A stretch of DNA of 64,000 nucleotides, taken from assembly GCA_045536195.1 (NCBI GenBank), contig JAZSNB010000118.1, positions 247 through 64,246 on the forward strand, in the 5' to 3' direction. This DNA is from Acutalibacteraceae bacterium. Its GTDB lineage: Bacteria > Bacillota > Clostridia > Oscillospirales > Acutalibacteraceae. Under the pieces are notes generated by a model. The model had not been told where the DNA came from. It made no database searches and saw only the letters and a list, made by a program, of their open reading frames with translations. Both the position numbers and the translations under genes were made by a program. Of the stretch, positions 26,200 through 30,101 are shown piece by piece (position 1 is the stretch's first letter; each line of letters opens with the position of its first letter).

Positions 26200-28698
26200 T
26201 TATGCTGTTTCAATTGAGTCAGCCTTCTGAAGTCCGAATTTTTCTATGGCATCCTCTCTCATTTTATATTTGAGAATCTTTCCTGCTGCGTTCATCGGGA
26301 AGGCATCCACAAAGTCTACATACTTCGGAACCTTATGCTTTGCCATATGAGAACGCACATAATCCTTCATTTCGGCTTCAGTCATGCTCTCCTCTTCTTT
26401 AAGGATAACGCAAGCCATAATTTCTTCACCCATTGCTTCATCGGGCACACCAATGACCTGCACATCGCTTACCTTAGGATGAGTATAAATAAATTCTTCA
26501 ATTTCCTTGGGATAAATATTCTCACCGCCGCGGATAATCATATCCTTGAGTCTGCCGGTGATTCTGAAATTACCTTCAGGTGTTCTGCAGGCAAGATCTC
26601 CCGTATGAAGCCAGCCGTCTTTGTCAATAGCAGAGGCTGTTGCCTTGGGCATCTTATAATAGCCCTTCATAATATTATATCCTCTTGCAACAAATTCACC
26701 GGTCACATTATCGGGGCATTCCTCTCCTGTTTCGGGATCAACTATCTTGCATTCAATTTCGGGCAGAGCTCTTCCGACTGTAGAAACTCTTACTTCAAGG
26801 GAATCGTCGGTGCTGCTCATAGTACAGCCCGGAGAAGACTCCGTCTGACCGTATACTATGGTTATTTCCTTCATGTTCATTTTGTCAACAACGTCCTGCA
26901 TAACACTTATGGGACAGGGTGAGCCTGCCATAATACCCGTACGCATATATGAAAAGTCGGTCTTCGGGAAATCTTCGTGGCCTAAAAGTGCAATAAACAT
27001 TGTAGGCACACCGTGAAATGCAGTTATTTTTTCATTATTGATACAGGCGAGTGCCGGCTTCGGTGAGAAATAAGGAAGCGGCATAAGAGTTGCACCGTGT
27101 GTCATAGATGCCGTCATTGCAAGTACCATTCCGAAGCAATGGAACATCGGCACCTGAATCATCATACGGTCTGCTGTGGACAGATCCATTCTGTCACCGA
27201 TGCATTTACCGTTATTTACAACATTATGATGAGTAAGCATAACACCCTTGGGGAAGCCTGTTGTTCCCGAGGTATACTGCATATTGCATACATCGTCTTT
27301 ATCGACCTGTGAAGCATATCTGTAAACCTCTTCCACGGGAACGCTCTTTCCTTTTTCGGAGGCCTCTTCCCAGGTCATGGCACCTTCCATTGTAAAGCCG
27401 CAGGTAATAACATTTCTTAAAAACGGCAGACGCTTTGCGTGAAGAGCCTCACCCGAGCGTGTATTTTTAAGCTCAGGACAAAGCTCCTGTACGATTGCGG
27501 CATAATTTGAATCGCGGTATGAATCGATCATAATAAGAGTATGTGTATCAGACTGTCTGAAAAGATACTCTGCTTCGTGAATTTTATATGCCGTATTTAC
27601 CGTTACAAGAACCGCACCGATTTTTGCTGCTGCCCAGAATGAAATATACCACTGAGGAATGTTTGTTGCCCACACAGCAATATGCGTACCGGGACGGACA
27701 CCAAGAGCAATAAGGCTTCTTGCAAAATTATCAACATCATCCCTGAACTGGGAATATGTTCTTGTGTAGTCAAGAGTTGTATATTTGAAAGCAAGCTGGT
27801 CGGGGAAGGCTTCACATTGAGCGTCAAGCACCTGAGAAAAGGTCTTATCAATAAGCTGTTCCTTTTTCCATATAAACTTACCGTCACCCTTTTTATTGCG
27901 GTAGAAGTGCTTTTTGTTTTTCTTTGGATTTCCGTATACATTCATATGAGATTCAAAGAATGTGAGAATAACCTCAAAATCATCAATTTCGGGAAGCCAC
28001 TCACGGCTCCACTCAATTGCAACAAAGCCGTTGTAGTTTACGGAACGAAGAGCATTGATCATTTCGGAAACGGGAAGAGTTCCCTCTCCGATAAGAACGG
28101 GATTGCCCTCGGCATCGGCATCATTTATTTTTACCGATTTTACATAAGCTCCGAGATTCTTAATGGTGGTTTCGGCATCTTCCTTTGAGATAAAATATGT
28201 GGCGTACATATTCCACTGAGCACCGAGATAATCACTTGCAAATGCCTGAAGAAGCCCGCAGGCTGCATCAGAACATGCAAATGCTCCGTCGGTTTCAATA
28301 AGAATTACAACATTTTTTTCTTTTGCAAAGGGTAACACTGCACGAAGAAATTCTTCTGCAGCATCTTTGTCCGAGGCAGCATATGCCTTAACAAAACTGA
28401 CTCCGATATCCGAAGCAGTCTTTATTATTTCTTCTGCTTTTCTTACGTTTTCGGAAAAATTATCTTTATCATCAATATCAAAAGGAAAATCAAGCTGAGA
28501 AACAGCTATTCCTGAATTGAGAATCTTACGGCGCGTTGAAAAAACACCTGCTTCTGAAAATGAGGCCTTTTCCCCGCCGAAGCATTCATCGTAAATATTA
28601 TATACTTCAACCGCATTGAACTTCTGCTGCTTAGCCAGTGTAAGATATTCGGAAAGTGACATTGCGGGCATATATCTTGTTGAAAATGAAAGTTTCAT
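26200..28698 (-). CDS. Fusion protein: xylose-isomerase-like TIM barrel (AP endonuclease 2 family) + FadD-type AMP-dependent acyl-CoA ligase
   Basis: 832 aa. The N-terminal about 255 aa look like a sugar-phosphate isomerase/epimerase barrel (VILIETDG..., FVAIEWSREW). The C-terminal part has YTSGTTGFPKGVMLTHHN, WLHTGDLACRTPEGNFRITGRLKDMIIRGGENIYPKEIEE and AAGKILKYKMR. Its ATG overlaps the upstream stop (TAATG). Confidence 0.85.
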   Translation of the reverse strand: MKLSFSTRYMPAMSLSEYLTLAKQQKFNAVEVYNIYDECFGGEKASFSEAGVFSTRRKILNSGIAVSQLDFPFDIDDKDNFSENVRKAEEIIKTASDIGVSFVKAYAASDKDAAEEFLRAVLPFAKEKNVVILIETDGAFACSDAACGLLQAFASDYLGAQWNMYATYFISKEDAETTIKNLGAYVKSVKINDADAEGNPVLIGEGTLPVSEMINALRSVNYNGFVAIEWSREWLPEIDDFEVILTFFESHMNVYGNPKKNKKHFYRNKKGDGKFIWKKEQLIDKTFSQVLDAQCEAFPDQLAFKYTTLDYTRTYSQFRDDVDNFARSLIALGVRPGTHIAVWATNIPQWYISFWAAAKIGAVLVTVNTAYKIHEAEYLFRQSDTHTLIMIDSYRDSNYAAIVQELCPELKNTRSGEALHAKRLPFLRNVITCGFTMEGAMTWEEASEKGKSVPVEEVYRYASQVDKDDVCNMQYTSGTTGFPKGVMLTHHNVVNNGKCIGDRMDLSTADRMMIQVPMFHCFGMVLAMTASMTHGATLMPLPYFSPKPALACINNEKITAFHGVPTMFIALLGHEDFPKTDFSYMRTGIMAGSPCPISVMQDVVDKMNMKEITIVYGQTESSPGCTMSSTDDSLEVRVSTVGRALPEIECKIVDPETGEECPDNVTGEFVARGYNIMKGYYKMPKATASAIDKDGWLHTGDLACRTPEGNFRITGRLKDMIIRGGENIYPKEIEEFIYTHPKVSDVQVIGVPDEAMGEEIMACVILKEEESMTEAEMKDYVRSHMAKHKVPKYVDFVDAFPMNAAGKILKYKMREDAIEKFGLQKADSIETA

Positions 28699-30101
28699 TA
28701 TCTGTTCTCCTCAAATGCAATTTTATTAAGGGCGTTAAGATAAGCCTTTATACTTGCACCGATAACGTCTGTAGAAATACCGCTTCCGGAATAGAGCTTA
28801 CCGGAATCGGAACGAAGCTTGACAAGTGCCTGACCCATAGCTTCTCTTCCCTCTGTAACGGACTGAATCTGGAAATCATCCAATTCAAAGTGATGGCCTA
28901 CAACCTGCTCTATTGCAAGAAATGCGGCATCAATGGGACCGTCGCCCACATAAACACCCCTGAGCTCTTTTCCGTCTTTTTCAATACAGAGATTTGCTGT
29001 AGCAGTAATAACGTTACCTGCATTTATGACATAGCTTATGAGCTTATATGTTGAAGGAACCCTGAGAGCGGATGAAGCAATAATCGCATCAAGCTCCTTT
29101 GTGCCTATCTGCTCTCTCACTGCGGCAAGCTTTACAAATTCTTCATAAACCTTTGCATTATCCTCGGCACTCAGCTCATAGCCAAGCTTCTGAATTGCCT
29201 TTGACACAGCTGAAAAATCATCTTCCTTGTTAAGCACTGCATCCTCATCATTTCTCACTACCGCATCATAGGGAGACTCCTTGGTTCTGTCATACTCTGT
29301 GATAAGCTTAATTTTTTCACAAACATTTTTGAGAGTTGCAGTTTTTATTCCCGTTGAGATACCTATAGCTTCACCTTTTACGCCGAGATAAGCTGCAATA
29401 TCTGAAATATCGGCATATCCGCTCTCGGTAACTGTGGTTTTTATACCGTCAGCACCGTTTCTGAGTGCTGCAGCAATACATGCTGTAGACATATTGATAG
29501 CATCGCTGACATCAACGCAAAGGCTCACACCTTCGATATTTTCAACATTTTTACAGATGTCTGCAATGAATGCAGCAAAATCATCGGAATCTGCAACACC
29601 TGCATCATCGGTAATTGTAACGCTTACGGCACCTGCAGCTATAGCAGCAGAAATTGCTTTATAAAGAAACTCCCTTTCTGCTCTTGTTGCATCAAGAGCC
29701 GTGAATTCGACAGTGCTGCAAAGCTCCTTTGCGCAGGAAACGATTTCTGAAATACGCATAAGCATCTTATCGGGCTTGAGAGCACACATATACTCCATCT
29801 GTGCGGGAGACACGGGAAAAGCCGCATTAAGCACAGGCTTTTTTGCATCCTTTATACATTCGTAGGCACAGGCAACAGCTTCCTTTGTATATCCCGTGGA
29901 AATGCTGACTGCTGATTTTTCGGTGATACTTGCAATGTTTTTAACAAGAAGCATATCAGCTTTATCATTTTTAACAGCGGGAAGCTCAATAACGTCTGCA
30001 CCTAATTTATCAAGCTGCTTTGCTATTTCCGTTTTATCACGGAAGCTGAGAGAAGAATCAAGATTCAGCATTGTTTTATCTGTAATTTTAATCTTTTTCA
30101 T
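28698..30101 (-). CDS. 2-isopropylmalate synthase-like protein (HMGL-like barrel + LeuA regulatory/dimerisation domain) with non-canonical catalytic motifs
   Basis: I placed the start at the internal Met (MKKIKITDKT...), 7 nt after AAAGGAG. The 524-aa track ORF extends into the T-box leader. Overall it is LeuA-like. DTTLRDGEQ is replaced by DKTMLNLDS and HxHNDLG by CVDVSDA. The C-terminal LeuA_dimer-like region is retained (GDGPIDAAFLAIEQV...TEGREAMGQA). Confidence 0.75.
   Translation of the reverse strand: MKKIKITDKTMLNLDSSLSFRDKTEIAKQLDKLGADVIELPAVKNDKADMLLVKNIASITEKSAVSISTGYTKEAVACAYECIKDAKKPVLNAAFPVSPAQMEYMCALKPDKMLMRISEIVSCAKELCSTVEFTALDATRAEREFLYKAISAAIAAGAVSVTITDDAGVADSDDFAAFIADICKNVENIEGVSLCVDVSDAINMSTACIAAALRNGADGIKTTVTESGYADISDIAAYLGVKGEAIGISTGIKTATLKNVCEKIKLITEYDRTKESPYDAVVRNDEDAVLNKEDDFSAVSKAIQKLGYELSAEDNAKVYEEFVKLAAVREQIGTKELDAIIASSALRVPSTYKLISYVINAGNVITATANLCIEKDGKELRGVYVGDGPIDAAFLAIEQVVGHHFELDDFQIQSVTEGREAMGQALVKLRSDSGKLYSGSGISTDVIGASIKAYLNALNKIAFEENR

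Follow-up and report, generated by a model that had tools for sequence, protein, structure and literature searches.

Architecture of the locus and of the LeuA-like protein

Within a 64,000-nucleotide (nt) stretch of contig JAZSNB010000118.1 from an Acutalibacteraceae bacterium (the whole analysed stretch is called the window below), we examined a minus-strand gene whose product of 467 amino acids (aa) resembles 2-isopropylmalate synthase (LeuA). The gene lies behind a leucine T-box leader and is followed by a gene for an 832-aa protein in which an epimerase-like barrel is fused to an acyl-coenzyme A (acyl-CoA) ligase; a second T-box unit with genes for another ligase, an oxidoreductase and an aminotransferase lies beyond it (Table 1). 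Judged by its sequence, the LeuA-like gene is a catalytically dead paralogue of LeuA in which the barrel is retained as a folded scaffold.

The coding sequence was assigned to the ATG at 30101, which has an AAAGGAG ribosome-binding site 8 nt before it. A longer open reading frame (ORF) of 524 aa, starting at 30272, was rejected on the grounds that it would cross the T-box terminator, that homologues are 466-472 aa long and that the ribosome-binding site precedes the ATG at 30101. Pfam analysis assigned residues 15-260 to the HMGL-like family (PF00682, E = 5e-25) and residues 334-461 to LeuA_dimer (PF08502, E = 2.4e-30, profile positions 4-130 of 131). An earlier reading of the same DNA, here called the original prediction, had described a protein that aligns end to end with short bacterial LeuA and has an intact C-terminal leucine-binding-type domain. 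The match to PF08502 over nearly the whole profile agrees with the second point, while the first holds in part: the barrel and the allosteric domain are both present, but about 30 residues of the subdomain that follows the barrel are deleted.

The closest solved sequences to the protein are N-terminal domains of LeuA, namely 3ewb (E = 3.9e-26), 3rmj and 3eeg. Modelling with AlphaFold2 on the basis of 44 family members gave a mean predicted local distance difference test (pLDDT) score of 84, with low confidence at residues 273-285. In Foldseek comparisons, the barrel of the model fits those of LeuA (3eeg and 3ewb) with a root-mean-square deviation of 1.7 Å and a template modelling (TM) score of 0.93, and the full-length model matches LeuA of Mycobacterium tuberculosis, including its leucine-bound form 3fig.

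Table 1. Features of the LeuA-like gene, its leader and partner, and the adjoining T-box unit in the window
Feature	Coordinates	Strand	Remarks
Promoter-like site TTGACT-17-TATACT, just upstream of Leu T-box	30447..30475	minus	Consensus match only
Leu T-box leader	30192..30434	minus	Rfam RF00230, 90.0 bits, E 2.5e-20, model positions 1-219
Intrinsic terminator of Leu T-box	30175..30200	minus	GUCCCUGAAAC...GUUUCGGGGAC then U-run; 5' arm overlaps antiterminator
LeuA-like coding sequence	30101..28698	minus	467 aa
LeuA-like residues 1-270, DRE-TIM (HMGL-like) barrel	29292..30101	minus	Without Arg/Asp (LRDG), HxH and GIGERAGN
LeuA-like residues 271-333, shortened linker	29103..29291	minus	Post-barrel HCS_D2 subdomain largely deleted
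LeuA-like residues 334-467 and stop, LeuA allosteric (dimerisation) domain	28698..29102	minus	Pfam PF08502
Fusion ligase residues 1-260, ketose-3-epimerase/UlaE-like TIM barrel	27919..28698	minus	Pfam AP_endonuc_2
Fusion ligase residues 279-832, AMP-forming acyl-CoA ligase	26200..27864	minus	Pfam AMP-binding and AMP-binding_C, E 1.5e-93
Promoter-like site of second regulatory unit	26162..26134	minus	
Ile T-box leader	26129..25888	minus	Rfam 90.6 bits, E 1.5e-20; specifier AUC at 26040..26038
Terminator of Ile T-box	25899..25869	minus	
HTH_19, Cupin_2 and AMP-binding ligase fusion, 755 aa	23571..25838	minus	Pfam
CbiA/ParA-like P-loop protein, 218 aa	22909..23565	minus	No NCBIfam match
2-oxoacid:ferredoxin oxidoreductase genes VorDABG	20330..22894	minus	
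2x[4Fe-4S] ferredoxin subunit, 68 aa	22894..22688	minus	
Oxidoreductase alpha subunit	22691..21621	minus	NCBIfam VorB, 546 bits against a cut-off of 399
Oxidoreductase beta subunit, thiamine pyrophosphate-binding	21624..20863	minus	Pfam
Oxidoreductase gamma subunit	20863..20330	minus	Pfam
Branched-chain amino acid aminotransferase	19256..20317	minus	NF009897, 477 bits against a cut-off of 307; Pfam Aminotran_4

Loss of the isopropylmalate synthase active site

Catalytic motifs were compared through a HMMER alignment to Listeria LeuA and a MAFFT alignment to Escherichia coli LeuA. The DTTLRDGEQ motif is replaced by DKTMLN and a 4-residue deletion: Arg13 has become L12 and Asp14 has become N13, and the Gly, Glu and Gln are deleted. 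The roles of the strand-1 Arg and of the metal-binding Asp are those of the residues in M. tuberculosis LeuA. The metal motif V-H202-T-H204-D reads V-D197-V-S199-D, in which neither His is kept, and GIGERAGN reads TE--SGYAD, with four residues deleted. In E. coli LeuA the missing post-barrel subdomain, which corresponds to Pfam HCS_D2, carries AHSSGIHQDG and gives an E-value of 1.5e-23; among 44 members of the LeuA-like family, HCS_D2 is detected in one, and weakly there.

Both alignments thus support the loss of Arg, Glu and Gln from DTTLRDGEQ that the original prediction had reported, and GIGERAGN is as unrecognisable as it had stated. Its reading of the HxH motif needs correction in one respect. 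A realignment in a shifted register, which had been named as a possible refutation, moves this motif by one residue and leaves both His lost, with Asp197 and Ser199 in their place instead of the Cys and Asp first proposed. New chemistry at a Cys/Asp metal site, one of its two suggestions, is contradicted by this shift and by ligand positions that vary freely across the family; such a site was rejected, no conserved replacement for the metal ligands being found among family members. The other suggestion, a pseudoenzyme derived from LeuA, is upheld by the loss of catalytic residues alongside an intact allosteric domain.

The protein is very probably non-catalytic as an isopropylmalate synthase, and because four defining catalytic features fail, it should not be filed as one. 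Its LeuA fold and domain order, and its position behind a Leu T-box, would also suit a divergent but working 2-isopropylmalate, citramalate or homocitrate synthase. We regard this as highly improbable, given that the protein lacks every defining catalytic residue as well as the post-barrel subdomain and that it falls under the cut-off of every NCBIfam LeuA, CimA, NifV and HCS model (its best LeuA score is 266 bits against a cut-off of 532, NF002086). Homologues of leuBCD are likewise absent among the neighbours whose domains were read, that is, the ORFs of the window and of related loci.

Distribution and conservation of the family

A scan with one genome per species found relatives with an intact ORF in at least 596 species genomes. 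The carriers are mostly gut and rumen bacteria, and their families include Oscillospiraceae, Acutalibacteraceae, Lachnospiraceae, Christensenellaceae, Peptococcaceae, Eggerthellaceae/Coriobacteriaceae and Synergistaceae. A homologue search returned thousands of matches, the first 120 of which are all full-length with 48-100% identity; their database names are either hypothetical protein or 'alpha-isopropylmalate synthase regulatory domain-containing protein'. Among the matches listed, the closest relatives belong to metagenome-assembled genomes of Oscillospiraceae and Acutalibacteraceae, at 71-73% identity to the window protein. A pseudogene was rejected as an explanation, since hundreds of species keep the ORF uninterrupted and under selection. 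Nor are the features due to chance, given their very small E-values and their recurrence across hundreds of genomes.

Residue variation at the former catalytic positions was read in 44 family members. The Arg of LRDG is kept in 24 of them and the metal-binding Asp in none (E, G, C, N, A, Q and others occur instead). At the first His of HxH the family has Q, D, E, M, F, N or S, at the second S, C, N, G, A, R or V, and the Glu of EDA.R is mostly L or V. These patterns indicate a folded protein under purifying selection whose barrel has no conserved active site.

Conservation is distributed very unevenly along the protein. Distant members share 74% identity in the allosteric domain, compared with 42% in the barrel and 39% in the linker, and GDGPIDA, EAMG423 and STD..GASI.AY.NALNKI, all of them motifs of the allosteric domain, show no variation in the family. 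G423 aligns with G462 of E. coli LeuA, and the G462D substitution is the classical feedback-resistant allele of that enzyme. The LeuA-like protein is most strongly conserved in its allosteric domain, which by this measure is its apparent functional core.

Pairing with a barrel-ligase fusion

The LeuA-like gene and the fusion ligase gene share bases at their junction, where the stop codon of the first and the ATG of the second overlap (TAATG at 28698). The first domain of the fusion was modelled by AlphaFold2 with a pLDDT of 91.6 and resembles the L-xylulose-5-phosphate 3-epimerase UlaE and ketose 3-epimerases; its best Foldseek match is UlaE (3cqj/3cqi, TM score 0.78-0.80) at approximately 15% identity. 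The family consensus of this barrel includes the motif KHVHxxD, which reads KSVKIND in the window. From this substitution, the barrel, at least in the clade of the window, may also be non-catalytic and would then be a second degenerate barrel in the same unit. Relatives of the ligase part in the Protein Data Bank are fatty-acyl and feruloyl-CoA synthetases. The two parts evolve at very different rates, with 67-93% identity to the window for the ligase part across 80 species loci and 30-48% for the barrel.

The LeuA-like gene is followed by the epimerase-like barrel in all 74 species loci with at least 700 nt of downstream sequence, and by the ligase part in all 61 with at least 2.6 kb. The intergenic gap has a median of 3 nt, and the two genes overlap in 24 of 81 loci (17 ATGA and 7 TAATG/TGATG). 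A reverse check gave the same picture, as the LeuA-like gene precedes both of the two TIM-barrel matches obtained from an independent search. Homologues of the epimerase-like barrel were also searched for three-domain fusions; the matches were mostly fragments at contig ends and included no fusion to LeuA. The TAATG overlap and the translational coupling to the ligase fusion had both been put forward in the original prediction. The first is found exactly at 28698, and the second gains support from the overlap together with the fusion ligase being the next gene in 74 of 74 loci.

This partnership also bears on the idea that the protein is an active enzyme after all, with new chemistry in the remodelled barrel, perhaps together with the fused barrel, for a step that only the leucine branch needs. 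The barrel is kept and, in the model, folds confidently; D8, T10, E103, K109, D137 and R140 are invariant in it, about half of the family keeps the Arg as LR(E/Q), and most family members keep the KHVH motif of the partner barrel. We nevertheless consider new chemistry improbable. All three metal-ligand positions and the catalytic Glu position vary freely, and D8, T10, D137 and R140 also stand at the aligned positions of E. coli LeuA and hence are not new. Moreover, the clade of the window has lost both the Arg and the His motif of the partner barrel with the module kept, and by established biochemistry the route from isovalerate to leucine requires no extra step.

T-box leaders of the LeuA-like gene and of related ligase genes

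The leader of the LeuA-like gene (T-box sequence GGGUGGUACCGCG) has the specifier CUC at 30344..30342, followed by G at 30341. The gene is thus under a Leu T-box, as first proposed. An Rfam scan of the 20-40 kb part of the window at the gathering threshold returned no T-box, because both T-boxes of the window (90-91 bits) lie below the gathering score of 93; E-value mode shows both. Orthologous Leu leaders elsewhere score 97-119 bits, and the three that were aligned (111-119 bits) all read U-CUC-R. Just upstream of the leader lies a gene for a 311-aa protein (30560..31495, minus strand) with no Pfam match at the thresholds used, which ends in a strong terminator hairpin at 30545..30507.

The second T-box of the window is specific for isoleucine and gates the genes for a helix-turn-helix (HTH)-cupin-ligase fusion, a P-loop protein, VorDABG and the aminotransferase. 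T-box sequences across related loci were located by motif, and the specifier was read at a fixed register, 6 nt 5' of the GAGC of the kink-turn (K-turn), a positional rule that was validated on Rfam alignments. It was used in place of a MAFFT alignment for a Stem I covariance model, which mis-registered the Ile leader. The rule miscalled 4 of 64 leaders of LeuA-like genes, in which an earlier GAGC occurs, as well as leaders with an AAGC K-turn, and these were re-read by eye.

After re-reading, all 64 T-boxes first linked to a LeuA-like gene carry Leu codons (CUC in 49 and CUG in 15), and three further leaders of LeuA-like genes, those with the AAGC K-turn, also read CUC. The leaders of HTH-cupin-ligase genes carry Ile or Val codons instead: 24 read AUC and 11 read GUA or GUC, including one GUU call that was re-read as GUC. 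One more was called GGU; it resembles the miscall of GUC as GUU and was not re-read. Where a locus has two HTH-cupin-ligase paralogues, one has an Ile and the other a Val leader. Val (GUA/GUC) T-boxes stand before the second paralogue in L066 (16662..16912), L045 (2596..2842), L031 and L087, and in some genomes ligases gated by Leu, Ile and Val T-boxes stand next to one another. L066, a related Oscillospiraceae locus, additionally has a Leu (CUC) T-box at 38..263 on the minus strand that points out of the fetched locus, and a tetrahydrofolate riboswitch (7597..7697, 74.6 bits) upstream of the cluster.

Neighbouring genes and pathway context

The ligase part of the 755-aa fusion in the Ile unit has NF047394 (MbcS) as its best NCBIfam match, at 432 bits against a cut-off of 850, and the HTH-cupin-MbcS-like protein is a candidate 2-methylbutyrate-CoA ligase in which the HTH and cupin domains may provide a built-in sensor or regulator. 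In 29 of 80 species loci, the gene for the CbiA/ParA-like P-loop protein lies, conserved, between those of the ligases and those of the oxidoreductase. This protein has no NCBIfam match; it may act in the maturation of Fe-S clusters or of the oxidoreductase. Oxidoreductase or aminotransferase genes are found near the LeuA-like/ligase pair, upstream or downstream of it, in 33 of 80 species loci, and in some genomes the LeuA-like gene follows directly after the aminotransferase gene in one gene string.

In one lineage (L002, 15047..18544), a single-chain PFOR-type oxidoreductase of 1165 aa and a 2-hydroxyacid dehydrogenase replace the four-subunit VOR, with the replacement oxidoreductase located behind the LeuA-like, ligase and aminotransferase genes. 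In the Synergistaceae locus L004, the ligase is followed by a gene for a 216-aa protein without a Pfam match (14018..14668). Two further ORFs of the window, both on the minus strand, lie outside these units. The one at 32337..39236 encodes 2299 aa, with an N-terminal hydrophobic segment (FAKVTAKVIVMLLAVVMSLSVLPTL) and a sequence that is repetitive by eye, which suggests a surface or adhesin-type protein; the one at 970..4410 encodes an 1146-aa protein with no Pfam match at the thresholds used.

Only three activities are needed to turn isovalerate into leucine, namely a ligase, an oxidoreductase and an aminotransferase. T-boxes induce on amino-acid starvation, when the specific tRNA is uncharged, and AMP-forming ligases run from acid to thioester. 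Because of these two properties, the direction was taken as biosynthetic, and a catabolic direction from leucine to isovalerate was rejected. Leu-, Ile- and Val-labelled ligases, with a shared VOR and aminotransferase, probably fit the synthesis of the branched-chain amino acids from isovalerate, 2-methylbutyrate and isobutyrate. Purified MbcS of Staphylococcus aureus activates 2-methylbutyrate and isobutyrate and is very poor on isovalerate (PMC10026030), so the Leu branch would need a different ligase. From this pathway context, therefore, isovalerate is the likely substrate of the fusion ligase, and the module as a whole likely serves leucine synthesis from isovalerate. The original prediction had not taken this context into account. 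Rumen bacteria are reported to form leucine through direct carboxylation of isovalerate with subsequent amination (PMC7356843).

A candidate leucine-feedback subunit

We propose that the pseudoenzyme is a leucine-feedback subunit of an isovalerate-CoA ligase in organisms that make leucine by reductive carboxylation, a combined reading to which we give even chances; for the narrower claim, that the LeuA-like protein is specifically the leucine-feedback subunit of the ligase, the chances are even at best. In this proposal, uncharged tRNA-Leu would turn on transcription through the Leu (CUC) T-box, and the LeuA-like protein would be made together with the fusion ligase and most likely bind it. 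The ligase would convert isovalerate to isovaleryl-CoA, which the VOR-type oxidoreductase would reductively carboxylate to 2-oxoisocaproate, and the branched-chain aminotransferase would convert this to leucine. The LeuA-derived subunit would bind free leucine and throttle or otherwise tune the ligase, which would be the committed step of the leucine branch, with the effect probably relayed through the fused epimerase-like barrel. Control would then have two tiers, as in the classical leu operon, where a leader RNA is combined with feedback on the first enzyme. In the Ile and Val ligases, HTH and cupin domains fused directly to the enzyme would act as a different putative sensor, giving one sensing device per branch. 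Feedback on the ligase is favoured because the LeuA-like protein is its only invariable companion and retains a leucine-sensitivity module under the strongest constraint. A Leu-sensing or feedback subunit for the ligase had been suggested in the original prediction; the comparative data strengthen that suggestion, which is plausible and has the best support among the mechanisms considered.

Some of these observations would be equally expected of a non-catalytic structural or assembly subunit without leucine sensing, which would scaffold or stabilise the ligase through its epimerase-like barrel. The pairing and coupling of the two genes are invariable, LeuA_dimer is, as its Pfam name says, also a dimerisation element in LeuA, the very high conservation fits an interface, and the partner has a fast-evolving TIM barrel that is otherwise unexplained. 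In a variant of this explanation, the protein might dock the ligase to the oxidoreductase and channel isovaleryl-CoA, with the C-terminal domain as a dimerisation or interface module. We consider a purely structural role unlikely, though the least unlikely of the alternatives. The GxGP loop and the Gly equivalent to E. coli G462, both tied to leucine feedback in LeuA, are invariant, and the Ile and Val ligases have an N-terminal sensor-type module of another kind, suggesting one effector-sensing device per branch. The Synergistaceae locus L004 has the gene pair with no oxidoreductase or aminotransferase genes nearby, which also counts against this explanation.

The protein could also sense leucine and control something other than the ligase, for instance the oxidoreductase, the aminotransferase or a transporter. 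Its intact allosteric domain would suit such a role, as would the oxidoreductase or aminotransferase genes that stand nearby in 33 of 80 loci. This alternative is less likely because no gene except that of the fusion ligase is a constant neighbour (74 of 74 loci), and the stop/start overlaps couple the gene specifically to the ligase; we hold it to be as improbable as new chemistry.

Several points weigh against leucine feedback on an isovalerate-CoA ligase, the reading that we prefer. We infer all four of its central elements, namely the isovalerate substrate, the physical complex, leucine binding and inhibition of the ligase. The fusion ligase is a candidate isovalerate-CoA ligase whose specificity is assigned from context; its best NCBIfam match is a generic fatty-acid CoA ligase model (NF009233), at 698 bits against a cut-off of 832. 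The allosteric domain has 24% identity to that of E. coli LeuA, and a phmmer search of the regulatory domain alone against solved structures returned no solved regulatory domain and only a spurious match (0.22). Its strong conservation could mark a protein-protein interface instead of ligand binding. The proposal also leaves the role of the fused epimerase-like barrel unexplained. Finally, approximately 16 of 77 species loci have no T-box directly upstream of the LeuA-like gene, meaning that Leu-specific RNA control of this gene is common, not universal; several of the genes without a T-box are embedded behind an aminotransferase gene.

If the proposal is correct, the committed step of leucine synthesis would have moved from isopropylmalate synthase to isovalerate-CoA ligase, with the allosteric module of LeuA kept as a dead-enzyme feedback subunit. 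Combined with T-boxes for Leu, Ile and Val before three dedicated ligases, it would for the first time define at the level of genes, regulation included, the route that leads gut and rumen bacteria from branched short-chain fatty acids to branched-chain amino acids, and the protein would be a new case of a pseudoenzyme that serves an adenylate-forming ligase as its allosteric subunit. We advance this wider claim tentatively, at somewhat less than even chances. In the literature that we searched, which covers few subscription journals, we found no account of the LeuA-like protein, of its ligase partner or of the gene set with its T-box labels, and no genes, T-box control or LeuA-derived subunit assigned to isovalerate carboxylation.

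That rumen and gut anaerobes use isovalerate, 2-methylbutyrate and isobutyrate for amino acids is old physiology, which bears on ruminant nutrition and on the products of protein fermentation. The locus provides a concrete gene set for it, in which the Leu, Ile and Val T-boxes label which ligase serves which amino acid. Such a widespread, labelled set, through which branched short-chain acids would become branched-chain amino acids, is of greater interest than the LeuA-like gene taken alone. A widespread pseudoenzyme in which an allosteric domain has been redeployed to a different catalytic partner, if confirmed, would inform the evolution of feedback control and the engineering of ligand-controlled ligases. 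For annotation, genes of this family are not to be counted as leuA in metabolic reconstructions: apparent LeuA carriers may lack the isopropylmalate route, and apparent leucine auxotrophs may not be auxotrophs.

Comparison with known systems

The nearest relative by descent is LeuA itself. E. coli LeuA (b0074), a short-form member of the DRE-TIM metallolyases, shares with the LeuA-like protein the barrel fold and the C-terminal LeuA_dimer domain, and both are tied to leucine supply and lie behind a leucine-responsive leader. The LeuA-like protein is shorter (467 aa compared with 523 aa), and among the neighbours read its gene is never beside leuBCD and always beside the ligase fusion.

As a concept, the proposed subunit would be closest to HisZ, a dead paralogue of histidyl-tRNA synthetase that acts as regulatory subunit of short-form HisG and subjects it to feedback by histidine. 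In both cases, a dead enzyme paralogue would be retained as the end-product sensor of the committed enzyme of an amino-acid pathway. The folds are unrelated, however, and the partner of HisZ is the ATP-phosphoribosyltransferase HisG, not an acyl-CoA ligase; moreover, the HisZ complex and its feedback have been demonstrated, whereas we only infer their LeuA-like counterparts. A second parallel may be drawn with IlvN/IlvH, the small regulatory subunit of acetohydroxyacid synthase, which like the proposed subunit is a separate, co-translated, amino-acid-binding regulatory subunit of a branched-chain pathway enzyme. IlvN differs in being a small ACT-domain protein and not a degenerate enzyme, with another fold and another effector site.

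On the side of the pathway, S. aureus MbcS resembles the ligase encoded at 23571..25838, and its substrate preference matches the split between Ile/Val and Leu T-boxes (PMC10026030). MbcS supplies fatty-acid synthesis and lacks the extension of HTH and cupin domains, and the ligase partnered with the LeuA-like protein belongs to another, NF009233-like subfamily. The carboxylation of isovalerate reported for rumen bacteria has the same predicted steps, from acid to acyl-CoA, 2-oxo acid and amino acid, and takes place likewise in gut and rumen anaerobes (PMC7356843).

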